Shown: piece after piece, positions 3,583 through 54,349 of the stretch
Layout of the letters: each line of letters starts with the position of its first letter
How positions within the stretch are numbered: the stretch's first letter is position 1
Source of the DNA: Escherichia phage BB1
Length of the DNA: 64,000 bases
Sequence record: NC_106597.1
Strand: one strand, 5' to 3'
Program-made: the position numbers and the translations under genes
The notes under the pieces: model-generated
Database searches by the model: none
What the model saw: only the letters and a program-made list of their open reading frames with translations
What the model was told of the DNA's origin: nothing

Positions 3583-6500
3583 TTATCTATTCGCTAGTAG
3601 AGAGTTAACTACTATGGTTAGATCTGCAATTTGCTTTTTAAGATCAGATACTTCTGATTCTAGAGCTGTGATCCTGCTATCAGATTCTCTGCTTACCTGT
3701 ACTAACAACCCGGTAATGGCCCCATAATCTACCGAATAGAATCGTTCCTCTCCAACGAGAGGCTCACCGTTTAGGGTGGCACCTGCGAGATCTGTATATT
3801 TTGTAAATCCACTTACAGCCTCCGGTAGCGCTTCCATCACTTCCTGGGCTATAACTCCCGCGTACGGCATACCGTTTTCTTTAAGGGTATATGTATATCC
3901 TTTCATTTTACGGAGAGATTCTGTAGCATTGGGTATCTCTACTATGTTATCTTTTAGATCCCTATCAGAAGCTTGGTTAAATGCGATTGCTTGAGCAGCC
4001 CCATTTACTTGGAGAACACGAGATCCATCAGTATTTTGTTGCGCATAAAATAAGTATCCATCAGTTAATTTACACTCAATAACAGAAGGTCTTCCAGTAG
4101 TATTACCCCATAATTGAAGTATAGCATCTTTAGCTGCATTTGATGTATTTTCAATTCTAAACTGTCGATTATTTGAACGACGTACAACTATAGCAGTACT
4201 ATCTGCAAAAACTCCACCACCATAATTAGGGGTCCTTATTGAAGTATTACCATCCTCCCCTAAACTTAATGAACTGCCCATCATCTCATTAGCTATAACA
4301 ACAGATTTTCCAGCTCCGGTTTTACCAAAATACCACATTCTAGTATTATTAGCTGTTCTACCTGCTAAATAACCACTTTCAGAAGTATCATCAACACTAG
4401 ATTTTAGGGTTAATGCCTCTCCATTTTTATTTATAAAAAGAGGGACTTTAAAATCAGCATATTGATCCGTAATTATACGATTCCATGCACCTATAGTGCC
4501 AGATTCAATACTTCTCAGATAATATTTATTACCCCTACCGGCTAGTTGAGTAGCATAGTTACCACTAAAACCTATATGTACCCCACCATATACAACATTG
4601 TTTTCAGGACTATTAACTTGACCAGCAATACCATAAAACTTATTGATAGTGTTATGTTGTGTATTCCAGTCTACACCAGTAGAAGATAACATACCTGAAG
4701 GAGCTGAGAAGGTCCCATCCTTATTAAAATTAAAGAATTTATGACTAGCAGAACTAGTCATATCCCTAACAATAATCTGTCCAGCTTCTTCTGTTGCCCT
4801 AAACTCACTTTGTCCTAATATGGTATCAGCACTATTTACTAACTGAGATGTGTATGTATTTTTTGTTACAGCATCGCCTCTAGCAGAAAAACTATTAGCA
4901 CCAACAACACTACCATTAAAAGTAAAAGAAGGTGCAGTAGCAGAAAAGGCGTTACCAGAGTTAAGATTATTAGTTAAAGCAAAATTAGGAGATAATCCCT
5001 GACGGAAAGGATGATTAGAGTAAAAGCCAGAACCGCCACCAGTAAAGTTCAAGAGGTTGCTAACATTACCCTCAGCATTTCCATCACCCGCATCTGTTAC
5101 TCCAAATTTAAATTTAACCCCGTTAGTTCCTAATACATAGTCTTCCGTTGGAACATTTATAACAACCTTTGGGTCTGTCATAATGTTCACAGGAAATGCT
5201 TTATAGTGCACATAAACTGCTATGTGTTGAGCATAGTCCTTGTTACTTCCTTTTATGCATAGAATACCCAACTCATTGGGGTCATACGTTGTGAATACTC
5301 CATATGCTATACTAGGGCTATCGCTCCAGCCACCACAAGTTACGTAGCCAGAAAAAACATTATTATTCATCTCATGGCCGGCCGATCTACCAGGAGTACG
5401 AATAGATATAGGTACTGGCATAACCCCATTACCATTAACACCTCCAGTATAAAATATAACTGGATAGTATTTCCCATCAACAGCACCTGAAGGCGCATTA
5501 ATAGTTTGGTAAGTACCTATAAATCCTGTAGTAGGTATACCTAAATTTTGTTGAGTTACAGTAAGATTCCTAACAGCTATAGTATCCGTATTAATCTCAT
5601 TTGGTACGAATAGTTGACCATTATGTTTAAAATGGAATGTTTTATAAGATGGGCCAGTATCTTCTCCCATAATCTGCAGAGTTGCAGCAGCAGTACCATC
5701 AGAAAGTTTTTCAGGGTATAAGCGCATACGCGCTCTTTGAGTACCATTCACAGCTCTTAAGTAACTATTAATAATACCTCCAGCAGCTGCCGTACTATCA
5801 CTATATCCAGTTAATGATAGACCAGCAAATAATGGTGCATGCTGGGAACCTAGCTCAATAAGCTGTCTACAGTAGCTAGGATCGTAACTATTAAGGATAG
5901 ATCCCCAGGCAGACCATGTTGAGGTACCTGGGTTATAACTACGTTCGTATATCCTATTAGTACTAAAGGTAATGTATATCTGACAACATCCAGCAACCCC
6001 ATTAGCACTATTTTGTAGTACCATTAAGTTTCCCGCTTCTTGAATAGGATAATTACGGGCTATAGTTGCATTAGCAGATAGATTCTGGTAATAGAAACCT
6101 GCAGACTCACCCGTAAGATCATTCAAGTTCTGATCTGTTAAGGTAGAAAATCTACGATACATTACTTCCAGATTTCTACGTGCGTCAGAAGTATTAAGAG
6201 CACCAGTGCCGCCCTGAGCTATTGCGAGAGGTTGCCACCTACTAGTTGTAGGATTAAATGCTCCCCACTGACCACCAGCATCAACCTGTAAGTAACAGCC
6301 ATCCGACTGAATATCTGTTGAACAAACGATGGTTCTTGTATCACTGGAACGTTGGAAGCGGTTTAGCTGTAGATTAGTTCTCGCTTCAGCAGCTGATCTA
6401 CCTCCGGTACCACCCTGTCCTACTGCAAGAGGTATGTATGTCCTATTCTCTATATCATAAGCTCCCCAGAGTTTATTGGAAGTAATAATTATTTTTGCAC

Positions 6501-7485
6501 CTTCATTAGGGTTTAATAGTTGAGTTTCAGAATTTAGTTGGACGAGCTTATCAACCTCATTCTTACGTGCATGACGTGTCCACTGCGGGCCAGTAGATGT
6601 ACTCCAACGATAGGTGTATAATGAGCGAGACGCCCATCCTTGGAAAACACCAGTGTACGCTGGACTACCATCCACTTGACTAATAAACCCTGTAAGACTA
6701 CTCTCACCAGAGGCTATTGATGGGAAGCCTACTGCATTACTCATGATACGCATAAAGCCAATATACGCAGAAGGATTACCAGAAATATCAGGACAATCAC
6801 GAGGGGCATTACCTAAACCTATAGAGGCTTTCATGCCGGAAGCTACATTTTCAGCTTTAGTAGCTGAAGCAGCCGCATTAGTTTCCGAAGTTTTAGCATT
6901 AGTTTCTGATACTTTAGCAGCATTAGCACTGTTAGCAGCAGCAGTTTTACTACTATTAGCGTTAGTTTCAGAAGTTTTAGCGGCAGAAGCAGATGCAGCA
7001 GCATTAGTTTCTGAGGTTTTTGCTGCGGAAGCAGATGCAGCAGCAGCAGTTTTGCTACTATTAGCATTGGTCTCAGAAGTTTTAGCCGCTGTTTCACTAG
7101 CTTTTGCATTGGTTTCTGAAGTTTTTGCAGCCGTCTCACTAGCTTTTGCGTTAGTCTCAGAAGTCTTAGCAGCTTTAGCGCTATTAGCAGAAGTAGTAGC
7201 AGAAGAGGCAGACTGAGTTGCAGATTGCTGGGAAGATGCTGCGGAAATTTCTGCTTCATTCTCAGAGTCTTTAGCGTTTAGCTCTGACTGTTTAGCATTA
7301 ATCTCTGATTGTTTAGCTGCTGCAGCAGAAGCTTTAGAGGATTCTATAGCAGTAGTTAGTTCTCCTGCCGTAATAGAGCTAATGGAATTAGAAAGCACAA
7401 CTGTATACTTAGGATACTTACTTGCAGTTATGCTATTCTGGTCCATAATGACCATTTGCTGTAAAATTATTTTAGTTATAGCCAT
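3583..7485 (-). CDS. L-shaped tail fibre protein (pb1-like) with C-terminal intramolecular chaperone domain
   Basis: 1300 aa; N-terminal Ala/Ser/Thr-rich tandem repeats (AKTSETNAKASETAAK...); C-terminal S74-type autoproteolytic chaperone motif (DRDLKDNI..., GYTYTLKENG); position matches ltf in T5. Confidence 0.8.
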   Translation of the reverse strand: MAITKIILQQMVIMDQNSITASKYPKYTVVLSNSISSITAGELTTAIESSKASAAAAKQSEINAKQSELNAKDSENEAEISAASSQQSATQSASSATTSANSAKAAKTSETNAKASETAAKTSETNAKASETAAKTSETNANSSKTAAAASASAAKTSETNAAASASAAKTSETNANSSKTAAANSANAAKVSETNAKTSETNAAASATKAENVASGMKASIGLGNAPRDCPDISGNPSAYIGFMRIMSNAVGFPSIASGESSLTGFISQVDGSPAYTGVFQGWASRSLYTYRWSTSTGPQWTRHARKNEVDKLVQLNSETQLLNPNEGAKIIITSNKLWGAYDIENRTYIPLAVGQGGTGGRSAAEARTNLQLNRFQRSSDTRTIVCSTDIQSDGCYLQVDAGGQWGAFNPTTSRWQPLAIAQGGTGALNTSDARRNLEVMYRRFSTLTDQNLNDLTGESAGFYYQNLSANATIARNYPIQEAGNLMVLQNSANGVAGCCQIYITFSTNRIYERSYNPGTSTWSAWGSILNSYDPSYCRQLIELGSQHAPLFAGLSLTGYSDSTAAAGGIINSYLRAVNGTQRARMRLYPEKLSDGTAAATLQIMGEDTGPSYKTFHFKHNGQLFVPNEINTDTIAVRNLTVTQQNLGIPTTGFIGTYQTINAPSGAVDGKYYPVIFYTGGVNGNGVMPVPISIRTPGRSAGHEMNNNVFSGYVTCGGWSDSPSIAYGVFTTYDPNELGILCIKGSNKDYAQHIAVYVHYKAFPVNIMTDPKVVINVPTEDYVLGTNGVKFKFGVTDAGDGNAEGNVSNLLNFTGGGSGFYSNHPFRQGLSPNFALTNNLNSGNAFSATAPSFTFNGSVVGANSFSARGDAVTKNTYTSQLVNSADTILGQSEFRATEEAGQIIVRDMTSSASHKFFNFNKDGTFSAPSGMLSSTGVDWNTQHNTINKFYGIAGQVNSPENNVVYGGVHIGFSGNYATQLAGRGNKYYLRSIESGTIGAWNRIITDQYADFKVPLFINKNGEALTLKSSVDDTSESGYLAGRTANNTRMWYFGKTGAGKSVVIANEMMGSSLSLGEDGNTSIRTPNYGGGVFADSTAIVVRRSNNRQFRIENTSNAAKDAILQLWGNTTGRPSVIECKLTDGYLFYAQQNTDGSRVLQVNGAAQAIAFNQASDRDLKDNIVEIPNATESLRKMKGYTYTLKENGMPYAGVIAQEVMEALPEAVSGFTKYTDLAGATLNGEPLVGEERFYSVDYGAITGLLVQVSRESDSRITALESEVSDLKKQIADLTIVVNSLLANR
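6838..7330 (-). repeat. in-frame tandem nucleotide repeats encoding the Ala/Thr/Ser-rich repeat region of the tail fibre
   Basis: Reiterated units of about 21-24 nt (gcattagtttctga.gttttagc variants); both antisense ORFs in the track show periodic low-complexity translations. Confidence 0.7.
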
Positions 7486-13621: not shown

Positions 13622-16600
13622 TTACATATTACCAAGAGATTTAAGGGTGGATCCATTCTCATTAAGAGCCAGTTCCACGGCATCTCTTAAAGCAGTGCTG
13701 TTATTCGATGCAAAATCTCTAAAGCTAGCAGCATCCATTGTGCTAATATTCAGAATGATTGGTCTTCCAGAGGTAGTCTTTGATCCATCAGAAAGCTGAT
13801 CATTAGGTGTGGCTTTCATAGGAACCATAGGAGTTACTACTTCGGTACCATGCTCACCCATTTGATAACTAACCCCAGGGTACATCATACCACCTTCAGC
13901 ACGAGGAACAAATGAGTTGGCATTACCAATACCTTTATCACCACGTAGGTAGGATAATTCTCCTGAGCTAGCTTGCATAGATACATCAACGTTCTTCTGT
14001 CGCTCACCTAGGGTTAGGTACTGAGTAGTATCTGCTCCAGAATCTGCAATAGAAGACATACCAGATGCAGAAGATGCTTGAGCAAGAGCTAAGGCACCTG
14101 CTAAACCTGCCGCCACCATCAAAGGAATAGAGAACGGGTATGGTACAGCTGTTGCTGCCTGCATTACTGCCACTGCTGTCTGGATAATAATTTGTTTCTT
14201 TGCTGCGTCTTGCTGGATTTTTAACTTTTCAGCTTCTAACTTTTTCAGTTTAGCTTTAGATGCTTCAGATTTACCATCTCGTTTCTGTTCTGCTGCAATA
14301 GCCTGATCAATTGCACTAACCTGTTGACTAGTACTATATTGAATCATAGAGGCCACAGTCTGCATACCAGAAGCAATCATAGACGTAGTATCTAGAGATC
14401 CCTGTGAGAATTGAATCATAGAGTTAGTTAAATTACCCATGCTTTGAGCTACAGCAGTTGCTTCGGAATTTAACTCAGATAGTTTAGAGATTGCCTGATC
14501 ATATGAAGACATCCTATTCTGCATATCAGCAAAATCTTTATCTGCTCCAGATAGACCAGTTGTAGGAGTATAAGTAGCTCCAACAGAAGAACCTACCTGT
14601 TGCTGCATCTGAGCATTACGTTGTGCTGTTAAAGCTGACATCTGGGCCCTTGTCTTGGCTATTTCGGCATTCCAGCGCATTTGCTCGTTAGCATTACCTT
14701 TGGTAAGTTCTTTCATCTGAGTATAAAAATCTAACTGCATTTCCATTTTTTGCATTTCCCCTGCCAGAGGGAACATGGAAGTTAGAGTATTTTCAAAGGC
14801 TTCTTGCCTTTTACTGGTCATTTCAGCTTGCTGATCCTGACGGAATTTCCATATTTCACGTTCAATTTGGGCTTGAGAACGTCTAGACTGTTCAGCCTCT
14901 TTCTGTTTATCAGCTTGTTTTGTATACCATTCGTACTTCTCTTTTTCAATGGTCAATTCAAGATTTAACTGTGCTAGACGATACTGAGTATCTGTCATAG
15001 TACGGTTATTTAAGAGAGCTATCTCACGATCTACACCAAGAATTTTATCTGTGTAATCCTTGACCTTCTTCTGAGCTTCCATACCATGATTGGTAAGTTT
15101 AAGTTTCTCCAGCTGAATTTTTTCAATTTCTTTCTCAACAGCTTTATTTCCCTGGTTTGTTTGAAGAACACGGCGTAAAGCAGTTTCTTGCTCTTCTAAC
15201 TGTTGCAACTCTAAACGTCTACCAGCTTCCTGAGCTTTTTCCTTATCCTTAGTTTGATTATACACATCAGCTATTTTCTGTTGAACTGCTAACTGATTTT
15301 TAGTTTCATTACCCGTTAGTTTAACGTACTCGGATAAGGCTTGGGAAGCAGTTTTCATCTCAGATAGGGTGTTAAACCCTAAGTTGAGACTTTTAACATA
15401 CTCATCCGCACTCTTACCAGTTCCTGCGGAGAGAGATTCTACATTTCTAATTACCTCTTCAAAAGTTGCACTAGTTTTAGCAGCGGTATCTGTACTACTA
15501 GCTATATTTTGAAAGTCATTAGCTAAATCACTAGCCGTTTTCTTAGTCTGATTATATGCTTTTTGTTGTTCTGTCAGGCTCTTTAGAGCAGCAGAATTAA
15601 AGTCGTATACAGCATCTGGGTCATACACATCTTTCTGTAGATTAATCTGTTTCTGGAACTCTGGATTAGCTTTTGCAGCAGCAGCTCCAGCAGCTTGATA
15701 AGCCGATTTCCAAGCATTGAGGTTCTCTGTAGAATCCTCTACTTCCTTACCAAGTCTAGTTACTTGTAGACCCATAGCCGCTGTTTCTTCTACAAACTTT
15801 TTATTAGCTTCGGAAGCGCCCGCGGCTGCAATACCAACAGGAATACCTTCACCAACTTGACGTATAGCTAGTTTTGTATAGAAATCTGCTTGTTCCATTC
15901 GTTTATCGAACTCAGATTTTAGCTTATTACGCTTATCAAGAGATTCCTTATACATATCTAGAGCTTTATTATAGCCTTCTTCAGAAGCGGCCAAACTTAA
16001 AGCAACAGCACCAACGTTGGTAGGATCTATCTGTCTATTAGTTTTTTCTTGAGCTCTAGCTGCTTCAGCAGATACAGAAGCCTGAGAAGTATAAAATACT
16101 GTGTTGATAGCATCAATTACTGGCCCTAAGTACTTAGCAGCAGCTTGTTGTATTGTTCTTAGTGCAGCATCTGCGTTAGCAGCAAATTGCTCCCACGGAG
16201 TAGCACGTAAAACTTCATCTAAGTAACCAAAACGTTTAGTAGATTCTGCTATAACAGCATTAGCATACGCTTGCTGTTTCTGGAAGGTAGTAAGGCTATT
16301 AATATTATATGTTATACCCGTGTTTGCAGCATTTAACTGTTTAACGTAATCAGCATAAGCATCGTTAAGACGAATAGTAACACCAAGTTCATCCAGAAGT
16401 TCGATTTCTTGTTTAGATACACCCTTAATTACACGGTTAAGTGCGTCAGTCATATCAACGCCAAGAACAGCAGCAGCACGACGAGCTACTAGACCAAACT
16501 TATTAAGTTGTTCAGCATCAAATCCATAAGCGGACGCTGAGGATGCTTGTCTCATAGCTTCTTCAAAAGAGATTGCATAGCCAGCTGCCTCTTGCAGTGA

Positions 16601-17305
16601 TCTAGCAAGGGACTGAACAGGAGTACCTGTCTGAGTACCTACTATAACACCAAATTTTTCTAGACGATTTAGCTGATCACCTAGTTTAAGTTGTTCGAAT
16701 GCAGATTGCAAAACGAAGATGTTGGAAGCAAGAGCTGCGTACATAATAGGTAAACTACCACCTATCTTAGCCATTGCTGCAAAATCACGAGTTGCACCGC
16801 GTGCTGAACCAGAAGTATTACCAATAGCTCTAGAAGCTCTACCAGCAGCACCAGCAGTATCATTAAAACCTCTAGCTGTACCGCCTAAAACTCTATTGGT
16901 ATCATACAATCTATCTTGAACTTTCTCTGTTGCAGCTGCAACATCATTACCCATTGCTTTAACAGATCTAGAAACTCCATCGAATCCAATTTCTAGTTTA
17001 TCTGTTACTTCAATAAGTTGGATAGCCAGGTAATCTAGCTTATCACCAATACCATCAATGGATTTAGTGATACCAGCCATACCCCTACTAGCTTGCATTT
17101 TAGTAAGACTTTTTGCTGCTCTATCTGCTGCCCTCTCAATGGAGTATAGAGTTCTGGGCATTTTACCTAACTGTTCATTTGTTAGTTCAGAAGCAGCAGC
17201 AGCGTTCTCTAATGCATCAGCTACGTTTTCAATAGACTTTGCAGTACGAGTTGCCCCCTTCTGTTTAACGTCTATTAGTAATTCTCGTATTAGCTTATCA
17301 GTCAT
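13622..17305 (-). CDS. tail tape measure protein (pb2-like)
   Basis: 1227 aa; long Ala/Gln-rich coiled-coil segments, hydrophobic stretch and Gly-rich C-terminal region; size and position as in T5. Confidence 0.85.
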   Translation of the reverse strand: MTDKLIRELLIDVKQKGATRTAKSIENVADALENAAAASELTNEQLGKMPRTLYSIERAADRAAKSLTKMQASRGMAGITKSIDGIGDKLDYLAIQLIEVTDKLEIGFDGVSRSVKAMGNDVAAATEKVQDRLYDTNRVLGGTARGFNDTAGAAGRASRAIGNTSGSARGATRDFAAMAKIGGSLPIMYAALASNIFVLQSAFEQLKLGDQLNRLEKFGVIVGTQTGTPVQSLARSLQEAAGYAISFEEAMRQASSASAYGFDAEQLNKFGLVARRAAAVLGVDMTDALNRVIKGVSKQEIELLDELGVTIRLNDAYADYVKQLNAANTGITYNINSLTTFQKQQAYANAVIAESTKRFGYLDEVLRATPWEQFAANADAALRTIQQAAAKYLGPVIDAINTVFYTSQASVSAEAARAQEKTNRQIDPTNVGAVALSLAASEEGYNKALDMYKESLDKRNKLKSEFDKRMEQADFYTKLAIRQVGEGIPVGIAAAGASEANKKFVEETAAMGLQVTRLGKEVEDSTENLNAWKSAYQAAGAAAAKANPEFQKQINLQKDVYDPDAVYDFNSAALKSLTEQQKAYNQTKKTASDLANDFQNIASSTDTAAKTSATFEEVIRNVESLSAGTGKSADEYVKSLNLGFNTLSEMKTASQALSEYVKLTGNETKNQLAVQQKIADVYNQTKDKEKAQEAGRRLELQQLEEQETALRRVLQTNQGNKAVEKEIEKIQLEKLKLTNHGMEAQKKVKDYTDKILGVDREIALLNNRTMTDTQYRLAQLNLELTIEKEKYEWYTKQADKQKEAEQSRRSQAQIEREIWKFRQDQQAEMTSKRQEAFENTLTSMFPLAGEMQKMEMQLDFYTQMKELTKGNANEQMRWNAEIAKTRAQMSALTAQRNAQMQQQVGSSVGATYTPTTGLSGADKDFADMQNRMSSYDQAISKLSELNSEATAVAQSMGNLTNSMIQFSQGSLDTTSMIASGMQTVASMIQYSTSQQVSAIDQAIAAEQKRDGKSEASKAKLKKLEAEKLKIQQDAAKKQIIIQTAVAVMQAATAVPYPFSIPLMVAAGLAGALALAQASSASGMSSIADSGADTTQYLTLGERQKNVDVSMQASSGELSYLRGDKGIGNANSFVPRAEGGMMYPGVSYQMGEHGTEVVTPMVPMKATPNDQLSDGSKTTSGRPIILNISTMDAASFRDFASNNSTALRDAVELALNENGSTLKSLGNM

Positions 17306-36332: not shown

Positions 36333-36536
36333 TCAAGCGGTTTTTTGCAGTTTTTTATGATTTTCTTTCAAGTCAATCATAATATTTCGCCAGATCATTT
36401 CTAAACCTTGCTGGCGACCTTTCTTGTACTGCGTGAATCTATATTTTACTGATCTTTGTGCTACTGTCAACAAGTTTTTTGTTTTGCTATCTAGTGCCTT
36501 AATAGGCTTGCCAGTGATCAAAAGCGTTTGTTTCAT
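36333..36536 (-). CDS. hypothetical basic protein
   Basis: 67 aa, Lys-rich; first ORF downstream of the DnaA-box region. Confidence 0.25.
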   Translation of the reverse strand: MKQTLLITGKPIKALDSKTKNLLTVAQRSVKYRFTQYKKGRQQGLEMIWRNIMIDLKENHKKLQKTA

Positions 36537-36945
36537 ATCGTCGATTCCTTATAATGAATAAGTTTACCGCCGATAGGCTTTAAGATGTACCCAATTTTTA
36601 AAGAGCGTGGCGGTAAACTTCCCGCCGTGTAGTTCGTCATTGCCGCCCTACGAAATAAATAATAGGGGATTCCCGAAAATGGCGCAACCTTATTTTTGTA
36701 AAGAAACGTAAAGACACGATCCACCGGACGGCGTGCGGCGACGGCCTAAAATTAAAAGAAACGGGCGCGCGAATACCACAAAACATAGCAAATAGGCAAG
36801 TAATTTTTTCATTTATATTTACTTTGCCCTACTTGACAAAACCTAAAAAGCTCGTGACAGCGATAAACGGCTTATCCCTTTATGATGAGATGGCTAAAAA
36901 CTTCATCGCGTTCTAGGGCGTTTTAGGCGCATTCTAGCCTTGTTG

Positions 36946-46226: not shown

Positions 46227-46461
46227 CTTTAAGAATATCCTCTACCATATCACAAGACTGTTGCAATTCATCAGCAATACGTTTAATATCGGTTTTTGTT
46301 ATTTTACCGATTAACATCACCAGTAACATAGAAAGTATAATAAGCGGGACTGGAATAACAAACAGTGCTACCTTAACTATATTCTTTGGTGCCCATGTAT
46401 GGTACTTAGTAACCAGTACACCAACCACAATCAAATAAAACGCTAGAATAAACATCATCAT
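46216..46461 (-). CDS. membrane protein (81 aa)
   Basis: Two TM helices. Confidence 0.4.
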   Translation of the reverse strand: MMMFILAFYLIVVGVLVTKYHTWAPKNIVKVALFVIPVPLIILSMLLVMLIGKITKTDIKRIADELQQSCDMVEDILKDEA

Positions 46462-46739
46462 TTTTTAATCTCCGTGATTATCTGTGTACGCATTACTTTA
46501 GCAGGTAATTTATTATTCCCAACTATTGCTTCTATATTATTTAATTTTTCCTTAAGAATATCCGAGCGTCTTTGTGCTAATTCAATGTCCTGCTCTTGCT
46601 CTAGCAAACGGTGGTGTAGTCCATCATTAGTAATAAGCATATTTTCCATGCTTTTTCGTGCATTCACAATCCCAATAACTCCACCAATCGCTACTAGTGT
46701 CATAAGCACTAGCAATCCAATGAGAATTTCTGTAATCAT
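46458..46739 (-). CDS. small membrane-anchored coiled-coil protein
   Basis: 93 aa; N-terminal TM helix then coiled coil; start overlaps the HNH-copy stop (ATGA). Confidence 0.4.
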   Translation of the reverse strand: MITEILIGLLVLMTLVAIGGVIGIVNARKSMENMLITNDGLHHRLLEQEQDIELAQRRSDILKEKLNNIEAIVGNNKLPAKVMRTQIITEIKK

Positions 46740-46865
46740 TTATTTAAGTCCTCTAAAGTAGGTAAGGGTTTTGTATGATCAAAAGTTTCTATAACAGCAT
46801 TAGGCCCATGTAGTTCTAAACGTAGTTCATTAGCTCTTTGAACTGCCAACTCTAAATCTAGATAC

Positions 46866-47273
46866 CTAAAGTAGCCTCCGTGTACTGTAATGCTTTCGGC
46901 GCTTCTGGCCTGGACTCTCCATTGTTGTCGATCTTTTTTTCCAGGTAACTCCTAAGTACCCCGAATTAGATTGAGCGATTTTGCTACGATTATTCTCTTG
47001 GGACGTACAATCTTTTAAATTACACCATCTATTATCTTTTCTTATATTATTTAAGTGGTGTACTAGATTTGGAATATACCCCTCCATGTACAAAAAGGCT
47101 AATCTATGGGCTGCATATCTTTTTCTATTTATCCCAATAAATATATAACCATCCTTATCAGGACTACCAGCAATACTACCTGCTTTACCTCGTCCTCTAC
47201 TGACTTTCCTTATAAACTCGCCCGTTTCCGGGCGGTATTCAAATAACTCTTTTAATCTTTCTTGTGTTAGCAT
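46866..47273 (-). CDS. HNH homing endonuclease, apparently frameshifted copy (N-terminal frame)
   Basis: 135 aa homologous to the intact 178-aa HNH at 53813..54349 up to SGYLGVTWKKR, then diverges; the homologous C-terminus continues in another frame down to 46736. Confidence 0.5.
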   Translation of the reverse strand: MLTQERLKELFEYRPETGEFIRKVSRGRGKAGSIAGSPDKDGYIFIGINRKRYAAHRLAFLYMEGYIPNLVHHLNNIRKDNRWCNLKDCTSQENNRSKIAQSNSGYLGVTWKKRSTTMESPGQKRRKHYSTRRLL

Positions 47274-47545
47274 TTTTTCTTTAATTGCTTGACTTCACGC
47301 TCAAAGCTAGCTGCTCGGCGTTCTGCCACTGCTTGATGCTCCTTAGCAAAGCGTGCCTCTTGTTTTGCTAAGTTAAAGGCCATAGCGTTCTTGTTAAGAG
47401 AATCATACATCTTCTTCATCGCCGGAATAGACATTTTCATCAGTTGCCCCTCAAATCCTTGCATGTCGAGGAGAATTGCTAATACATTGGCCATTTCAGT
47501 CTTGGTAAGGTTAGAGGCGTCGAAGTCTTTAGTCATGTTTTCCAT
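47267..47545 (-). CDS. hypothetical protein
   Basis: ORF 47267..47563; the upstream ATG lies inside the conserved promoter leader, so ATG at 47545 after GAGAGG is more likely. Confidence 0.4.
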   Translation of the reverse strand: MENMTKDFDASNLTKTEMANVLAILLDMQGFEGQLMKMSIPAMKKMYDSLNKNAMAFNLAKQEARFAKEHQAVAERRAASFEREVKQLKKKC

Positions 47546-47577
47546 TAGAATTTCCTCTCTCATTAATTTATGAACTT

Positions 47578-53063: not shown

Positions 53064-53816
53064 TTATCCAACTAGTGGTTCTAGCTCTAAGTCACAGAAG
53101 TTATAAACTTCTAGTTTAAGGTTATTGATACCATCGAATTTATTAACTAATTCGTGAGTAATATATTTTGCAGGAATACCACTTTCAGATGGATGATCTG
53201 ATTTAATAGTAAACTTCTGCTCAGCGGGTACTACATTTACTATCAAAGAATCCATATCTAAATGGTTTGTTTCTCTGAGTAGCTCTCCTTCATTGGGGAA
53301 TCTAACATCTGTTATTACGGCGACGTCTGGGTCGTCTTTAGCGATGGATTGCTCCAGAATTATGAGCCAAATGCGTTCATGCACCAGCTGCCTTCCTAGC
53401 TCTGTCCCTACGAGCTGTAACATTTTTCTCGGAGAAATAAATAAACTATAAAGTCCGTCTTCTTTATTCTCTGAGATAAGTTGTTGAGGATTAAGGTATT
53501 TTTCCTCAAAAATAGGCCAAACGTACGAGAAGTCTTCAAACTTATCGATACCGTACTTAAACCACACATCTCTGGCTCGCTCCAATTGAGATTGTGTGAC
53601 CGTAAACCATTGGTCAACCTCTTTCCCCCTGCGCTCTCCTAGAAACTCTGGAGTTACACCGAGGATTACGGATGCAAGTTCATAAACGGGCTTAGCAAAA
53701 CTATAACGACGGGATAAACACGTTGGATACGTGTCATTACACCAATCGATAATTAATTTTGCAACGGTATCTTTTCCTGCACCTGCTTCGCCATGCAGAC
53801 CCACTAGTACACTCAT
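53064..53816 (-). CDS. deoxynucleoside monophosphate kinase
   Basis: 250 aa; P-loop GEAGAGKDT at the N-terminus. Confidence 0.6.
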   Translation of the reverse strand: MSVLVGLHGEAGAGKDTVAKLIIDWCNDTYPTCLSRRYSFAKPVYELASVILGVTPEFLGERRGKEVDQWFTVTQSQLERARDVWFKYGIDKFEDFSYVWPIFEEKYLNPQQLISENKEDGLYSLFISPRKMLQLVGTELGRQLVHERIWLIILEQSIAKDDPDVAVITDVRFPNEGELLRETNHLDMDSLIVNVVPAEQKFTIKSDHPSESGIPAKYITHELVNKFDGINNLKLEVYNFCDLELEPLVG

Positions 53817-54349
53817 TTATTAAGTTCCTCTAAAGTTGGTAAAGATTTTGTAGAATCAAAAGTTTCTATAACAGCATTTTCACCGTGCAATTGTAAACGA
53901 AGTTCATTGGCTCTTTTAACGGCGGATCCTAGATATAGGTAATCAAAGTGACCTCCGTATATATTATTACCCTTAGAATTAGCAACGTTTACTTCCCACT
54001 TCTGGTCACGTTTCTTCCAGCTAACTCCTAGATAACCAGATTTACTTCTGGCAGCTTTATTTCTCTGGTTTTCTTGGTTATTGGACTCTCTAAGATTTAG
54101 CCAACGATTGTCACCACCTACGCGGTTTATGTGATCCACCATCTCAGGAAAATAGCCCTCCATATAAAGGAATGCTAGCTGATGTGCTAGGTAAGGTTTT
54201 CCATCTACCTTTATTTGTATATACCCATCTTTCCTAAGTGTACCTGCAATATTACCCGCTTTTTGATTACCAACACTCACTAATCTAGTAAATAATCCAG
54301 TATCAGGGGTATATTCAAGTAATTCCTTTAACCTTTCTTGTGTCACCAC
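53813..54349 (-). CDS. HNH homing endonuclease (intact copy)
   Basis: 178 aa; AHQLAFLYMEGY...VDHINRVGGDNRWLNL...NQENQRNKA HNH core plus AP2-like YLGVSW; stop overlaps the kinase start. Confidence 0.7.
   Translation of the reverse strand: MVTQERLKELLEYTPDTGLFTRLVSVGNQKAGNIAGTLRKDGYIQIKVDGKPYLAHQLAFLYMEGYFPEMVDHINRVGGDNRWLNLRESNNQENQRNKAARSKSGYLGVSWKKRDQKWEVNVANSKGNNIYGGHFDYLYLGSAVKRANELRLQLHGENAVIETFDSTKSLPTLEELNK

Follow-up and report, generated by a model that had tools for sequence, protein, structure and literature searches.

The window analysed here, a stretch of 64,000 nucleotides from Escherichia phage BB1 (sequence record NC_106597.1), carries on its minus strand a homing-endonuclease gene at positions 46736..47273 that consists of 178 codons and one extra base and is frameshifted after codon 114. 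The gene runs from 47273 to 46736 and begins with ATG (protein start MLTQERLKEL...), its start codon lying in a 7-nt stretch (47267..47273) shared with the 3' end of the upstream 'protein 2C' gene (47267..47563). At the other end, there is an ATGA stop/start overlap (46736..46739) with a downstream membrane-protein gene (46458..46739). Inspection of the sequence revealed a GAGGA motif at 46749..46753, on the same strand, within the final 20 nt of the HNH gene and 9 nt upstream of the ATG of the downstream gene, for which it is the probable Shine-Dalgarno sequence. A second, paralogous HNH gene, located at 53813..54349, is arranged in the same way at its 3' end.

As written, the 5' part of the gene is an open reading frame of 135 codons (46866..47273, minus strand). 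The plus strand at 46930-46945 reads GATCTTTTTTTCCAGG, and the coding strand thus has seven consecutive A residues at 46940..46934 (T7 on the plus strand), which form the sole A/T run of at least seven in the window. In the zero frame, residues 1-114 of the product are authentic, and the last 21 residues before the stop codon, RSTTMESPGQKRRKHYSTRRLL, are out of frame and resemble nothing. The +1 frame after the run reads DRQQWRVQARSAESITVHGGYFRYLDLELAVQRANELRLELHGPNAVIETFDHTKPLPTLEDLNK and stops at 46736; this C-terminal part (46736..46939) has AP2 homology and corresponds in tblastn to homologue residues 112-178. In the comparison with the 178-aa paralogue protein (53813..54349), the first ~113-119 residues of the 135-aa product could be aligned, and the match to paralogue residues 112-178 continued in the +1 frame at 46939..46739, with a combined E-value of 3e-58. 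When one A was deleted, a 537-nt ORF was obtained, whose product is identical to the protein of NBEco001/RP5 and aligns with the 178-aa paralogue protein without gaps from end to end (108/178 residues identical, 61%; E 1e-79), far above chance.

A preliminary description of this DNA had placed the split exactly at the T7 run at 46934-46940, matched the ORF at 46866..47273 to the start of the 178-aa HNH protein, and traced the remaining homology to another frame ending at 46736 in an overlap like that at the start of the kinase gene next to the paralogue. All of these points were reproduced by the sequence, the frame check and tblastn. Its statement that six or eight T would restore a single frame held for six and failed for eight: in the frame check, six A gave 178 codons and nine A gave 179 codons with the two parts joined, and eight A did not join them.

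The nuclease domain is intact in the truncated product. Pfam family PF13392 (HNH_3) was found at residues 53-96 (46986..47117, minus strand) and scored 42-43 bits in the truncated ORF, the repaired protein and the paralogue, against a gathering cutoff of 24.8; a search of PHROGs matched phrog_99 'HNH endonuclease' (E 2e-58). Both matches bear out the earlier assignment of the gene to the HNH homing-endonuclease type. Residues H56, H73, N81 and N94, which are invariant among 58 homologues, are all present, and a profile built from these homologues matched among solved structures I-HmuI (1U3E) over positions 32-109 (E 5e-7). Judged by the Pfam match and the conserved residues, the protein is an HNH_3 / His-Me finger endonuclease and is predicted to be a nuclease. 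At codon 72 (47056-47058), directly before the codon of the catalytic His, the protein has His-His in place of the Asp-His found in 55 of the 58 homologues, His being found there only in P0003 and P0027. The His at position 72 may represent a change of metal ligand as in other HNH enzymes.

The C-terminal half has PF00847 (AP2) as its sole family match, covering profile positions 2-52 of 54, with scores of 15-21 bits that lie below the cutoff of 33.3. Precomputed matches to both HNH_3 and AP2 (PF00847) are recorded for many more distant homologues. Positions 101-159 of the 58-homologue profile matched the AP2 domain of WRINKLED1 (WRI1, 7WQ5; E 4.5e-6), followed by TEM1 (E 0.004) and an ApiAP2 domain. 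The AlphaFold (AF2) model of P0003, which is 99% identical to the repaired protein, has a mean pLDDT of 93.5 and shows the layout of an AP2 domain, with strands at residues 109-112, 117-123 and 129-135 followed by a helix at 137-158. When this model was compared with the PDB using Foldseek, AP2 domains ranked first, namely 7WQ5, 7ET5 (rmsd 2.9 Å over 63 columns) and 1GCC (TM-score 0.75 on the target); the E-values were modest, in line with a 60-residue domain. Taken together, the profile, the predicted model and the Foldseek matches identify the C-terminal half as an AP2 DNA-binding domain despite the sub-threshold Pfam score. The homopolymer encodes Lys113-Lys114, located between AP2 strands 1 and 2. 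Hence, the DNA-binding domain is lost from the product as written, and the nuclease domain is retained.

The site occupied by the gene was identified in other phages using the two flanks joined as a query, followed by alignment of representative loci. It lies between homologues of T5p031 ('protein 2C') and T5p029 (membrane protein) and was found in four states. In DT57C the slot is empty, with a 22-nt spacer; in T5 (AY692264.1, 15823-15987) it holds 165 nt with the 54-aa ORF T5p030; in T5_ev212 (16187-16612) it holds 426 nt with an unrelated 141-aa ORF; and in ~60 of ~360 records it holds the 537-nt HNH gene. Presence and absence of the gene at a fixed site were thus observed among close relatives. 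The insertion is seamless, in that the ATG of the HNH gene overlaps the end of the upstream gene, whose final codons are not the same as at empty sites. These features make the gene a candidate free-standing HNH-AP2 homing endonuclease located in a variable slot between genes. Most of the variation among T5-like genomes is due to homing endonuclease genes, among them those of the F-Tfl H-N-H enzymes (PMC10644984; PMC2330249; PMC12639943). The slot, filled by T5p030 in T5 and by the 141-aa ORF in T5_ev212, is flanked by two conserved early genes and appears to be a hot spot for insertions in general.

The paralogue at 53813..54349 (minus strand) is an intact 178-aa protein gene with HNH_3 and AP2 domains. 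It starts with GTG and shares an ATGA overlap (53813-53816) with a dNMP-kinase-like ORF at 53064..53816, and its product is identical to CUR49046.1 of Escherichia phage slur09. The paralogue is rare, being found at 99% or more protein identity in eight phage records and at 80-90% in one; related HNH-AP2 genes are present in 2971 phage records from many hosts. A tblastn search of the whole window found only these two copies, the number given in the preliminary description. That account had also called the last 60 nt of the two copies nearly identical and proposed a recent duplication or homing, and none of this is supported. The number of identical positions in the last 60 nt is 52 (87%), and nucleotide identity is 64% overall, falling from 72% over the first 60 nt to 53-63% in the middle and rising to 86% over the last 57 nt. 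Moreover, many Tequintavirus paralogues with an overall identity of only 55-80% share the C-terminal tail ...ETFD.TK.LPTLEELNK. A recent duplication within the window is therefore rejected on the 61% amino acid and 64% nucleotide identity of the two copies and on a tail common to many paralogues. Judged by these sequence comparisons, the two copies are old paralogues, and the conserved ends are a family feature and not the result of recent copying.

A similar pattern was seen between the allele classes found at the slot, whose nucleotide identity is 98% over the first 60 nt, drops to 52-72% in the middle of the gene and returns to 90-96% over the last ~117 nt. In the second allele class, represented by IrisVonRoten, oldekolle and H8, the middle of the gene is closer to the kinase-adjacent paralogue than to the allele of the window type. 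The mosaic structure of this class suggests that gene middles have been exchanged between paralogues. The conserved ends may reflect recombination of cassette middles, a role of the 3' end in the start of the downstream gene, or both.

Comparison with related genomes, which the preliminary description had proposed, revealed an intact frame with six A in ~20 phages and seven A only in this genome. A 1.2 kb segment around the gene matched 367 phage records, all of them T5-like (Tequintavirus), the best being slur09 at 99.3% identity. The exact 135-aa truncated product was found on one contig only, where it is annotated as 'putative HNH endonuclease [Escherichia phage BB1]' (QNL29634.1, MT843274.1), and a protein identical to the repaired 178-aa product is encoded on 12 contigs. 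A 91-nt query spanning the run retrieved 29 phage records representing ~20 distinct phages. None was identical to the query; the run is one base shorter (A6), and in ECOP18 it is two bases shorter (A5). Run length was read directly in nine of the phage records and taken from the alignment of the 91-nt query in the rest. NR01, ESCO40, MET_P1_179_112, SelmaRatti and VAH1 (left copy) have A6 and a single 537-nt ORF. The right-hand HNH copy of VAH1 is in fragments, and the differences between the two VAH1 copies have the look of sequencing errors left uncorrected in one of them. Four IMG/VR loci and two metagenome contigs also have A6, and GTDB genomes gave no match to the run query. The A7 allele was not found outside this genome in INPHARED, IMG/VR, metagenomes, GTDB genomes or the contig look-up.

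Two relatives have lesions of their own in this gene. In ECOP18 (MT080103.1, 41063-41598), the A5 run shifts the frame in the opposite direction, and the annotation lists two 'homing endonuclease' CDS, of 137 and 37 aa, for this gene. In slur09, the closest relative, the run is A6, and a TCG to TAG nonsense change is present at Ser105, 22 nt upstream of the run and equivalent to window positions 46962-46964; owing to this nonsense codon, only a 103-aa 'hypothetical protein' is annotated at the gene. Besides the two lesions, slur09 and the window differ in the HNH gene by two synonymous changes. The two thus represent sister lineages with independent knock-outs.

In the paralogue, AAGAAA is found in place of the run, and CATAAA is found there in the second allele class. 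The run is absent from these other lineages and thus is not conserved across the family. Pairwise comparison of eight alleles gave dN/dS values of 0.03-0.3 over all 178 codons, indicative of purifying selection, and the full-length frame is thus the selected one. The frame of the window gene is disrupted relative to intact orthologues under such selection, as expected for a pseudogene.

The homopolymer is also exceptional within the window. A/T runs number 908 of at least four, 275 of at least five, 55 of at least six and one of at least seven, with a sharp stop at six. The motif AAAAAAA has one match against 43 +/- 9 expected from shuffled sequences, and AAAAAA has 56 matches against 138 +/- 16 expected. 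These counts suggest strong selection against slippage-prone runs in T5-like genomes. The same avoidance of long runs was observed in slur09, which has two runs of at least seven in 50 kb, and in NR01.

The reading preferred here, with a probability of roughly 0.6, is that the locus carries a free-standing homing endonuclease gene that was inactivated very recently, in the ordinary decay of a selfish gene. In the functional form, as carried by ~20 related phages, the run would consist of six A's encoding Lys113-Lys114, and in this lineage it would have gained one A by replication slippage. Translation would then leave the frame after codon 114 and stop 21 codons later, so that the N-terminal region and the HNH nuclease domain would be made and the DNA-binding domain would be missing. 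The extra A would thus really be present in the phage DNA, and the truncated protein is presumably inactive.

Expansion of a mononucleotide run by one base is a classic product of replication slippage and also a classic sequencing error. The preliminary description had listed a pseudogene and a sequencing error among its options, and both remain live. If the seventh A were a homopolymer miscall in the deposited assembly, the phage would truly have A6 and an intact 178-codon gene; this is judged a possible, though less likely, explanation. Such errors concentrate in long runs, and the run in question is the longest A/T homopolymer of the 64-kb window. The residue-for-residue identity of the repaired protein to that on 12 other contigs also points this way, as does VAH1 (MK373792.1), in which the region is present twice (118602-120090 and 5680-7452) with 12 gaps in 1.5 kb between the copies. 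The method by which BB1 was sequenced was not found, the only paper mentioning BB1 giving its accession and length, and the window gene, compared with slur09, has no secondary decay that would prove the lesion old or real.

The quality of the assembly was assessed from the integrity of its reading frames. Slur09 was dropped as a reference for homopolymer errors, its identity to the window being 86-99% outside 42-54 kb, and a census of ORF integrity was used instead. Of the slur09 ORFs of at least 80 aa, 55 matched the window at 80% identity or more; besides the HNH gene, a single one was split, and this split does not involve a homopolymer, which indicates that the assembly is not generally frameshift-prone. 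The window contains 54 runs of exactly six A/T, and no other homopolymer-linked break was seen in the 55 ORFs, so that the error rate per run appears low. Furthermore, real lesions are known in the same gene, as the TCG to TAG change in slur09, being a substitution, cannot have arisen as a homopolymer artefact. On balance, the comparative evidence leans towards a real lesion over an artefact.

The other split found in the census lies at window positions 36536-36812 (minus strand), where a 96-aa slur09 ORF is in two frames and the window has ORFs of 40 and 63 aa. It is due to an 11-nt difference (8+1+2 nt) near 36742-36746 and is possibly another disrupted small gene.

The recorded contraction (A5 in ECOP18) and expansion (A7 in the window) of the same run would also be expected if the A-run were a contingency locus, that is, a selected on/off toggle with A5, A6 and A7 alleles in circulation and the gene switched off when the nuclease is costly. 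This is very improbable. Of ~22 independent sequences, only two have the gene switched off at the run, contingency loci usually need a run longer than six, and the Lys-Lys position has non-repetitive codons in paralogues. Slur09 was inactivated by another route, and plain decay is a better fit than a dedicated switch. An extended version, in which the Lys-Lys run is a reversible hot spot that uncouples the nuclease from its DNA-binding domain and the A7 form leaks traces of full-length protein through +1 or RNA polymerase slippage, is speculative and equally hard to credit; if true, it would mean that a toxic homing endonuclease is kept at a very low, heritably switchable level.

Least probable among the readings that assign the run a function is recoding, in which full-length enzyme is made from the A7 template and the split keeps the level of nuclease low. 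The frame would be regained either by a +1 slip of tRNA-Lys on AAA-A before a rare AGA codon or by transcriptional slippage dropping one A. A-runs are slippery for both RNA polymerase and tRNA-Lys, and in the zero frame the run is followed by AGA, a rare codon in E. coli. Some leakiness that is not under selection is conceivable through either kind of slippage. Tight down-regulation has been described for phage homing endonucleases (PMC2330249). However, the shifted arrangement is not conserved, as the homologues have A6 in frame (A5 in ECOP18), and the paralogue and the other allele class lack the run. The zero frame is not in phase with the A_AAA_AAG heptamer, and the restoring shift is +1, a -1 shift ending in a dead-end frame. 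No such +1 signal is known, and seven A's are below the usual length for efficient transcriptional slippage. A programmed frameshift or slippage site was thus rejected, as neither a conserved split nor a slippery motif in the correct frame and direction was found, and the slippery-run option of the preliminary description falls with it, given that the related sequences have a single frame with A6 (A5 in ECOP18) and that the shift needed is +1. A separately translated AP2 fragment, as part of a split two-protein enzyme, is unlikely because the +1 frame, when searched for ATG, had none, and its sole start codon, TTG at 46849, comes after the AP2 sheet.

Decay of a homing endonuclease gene is an ordinary phenomenon that is already known, and the public record already annotates a putative HNH endonuclease at this locus. 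For the annotation, the two ORFs in 46736-47273 should be replaced by one disrupted HNH-AP2 gene, or by a single 178-codon gene if the run is A6. The locus provides a small example of the cycle of gain, decay and loss of selfish nuclease genes in T5-like phages, in which A7 here, A5 in ECOP18 and the nonsense codon in slur09 are independent lesions of the same gene, three in all, set against purifying selection. DT57C and T5 offer candidate empty target sites for characterising the enzyme.

In its architecture, with an N-terminal HNH_3 domain and a C-terminal AP2 domain, and in its sporadic occurrence among close relatives, the gene resembles the free-standing HNH-AP2 homing endonucleases of phages (PHROG 99). 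Magnani et al. are said to have described this class of HNH-AP2 homing endonucleases in 2004. A parallel to the frameshift is gp115-gp116 of Vibrio phage ICP1 ('IPA-HNH', Barth et al. 2023, PMC10448857), where a frameshift likewise parts an HNH ORF from an AP2 ORF. The authors read the split HNH/AP2 gene as one inactivated gene and noted that frameshifts are frequent in phage homing endonuclease genes (PMC10448857). Unlike the ICP1 proteins, which belong to another sequence lineage, the protein examined here has a canonical HNH_3 domain that Pfam detects; and in contrast to gp115/gp116, the break is confined to a single genome and interrupts the AP2 domain itself, between strands 1 and 2.

Among enzymes of solved structure, I-HmuI of Bacillus phage SPO1 (1U3E), an HNH homing and nicking endonuclease, is the best match of the nuclease half, with the same H...N...N catalytic pattern. 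However, I-HmuI is intron-encoded and has a different C-terminal DNA-binding module, and in this comparison the allele class of the window differs in having His in place of the usual Asp before the catalytic His. Within the Tequintavirus group, the gene is comparable to those of the F-Tfl enzymes, HNH homing-type genes that are scattered through these genomes and constitute their main difference in gene content (PMC10644984). The characterised F-Tfl enzymes, as far as the 2004 study is cited in PMC2330249 and PMC10644984, differ in being located in the tRNA gene cluster, and T5 itself has no HNH gene at the slot and carries the 54-aa T5p030 there instead. In the annotation of one relative, the orthologue was automatically named 'hegJ_2: putative H-N-H-endonuclease P-TflX'.
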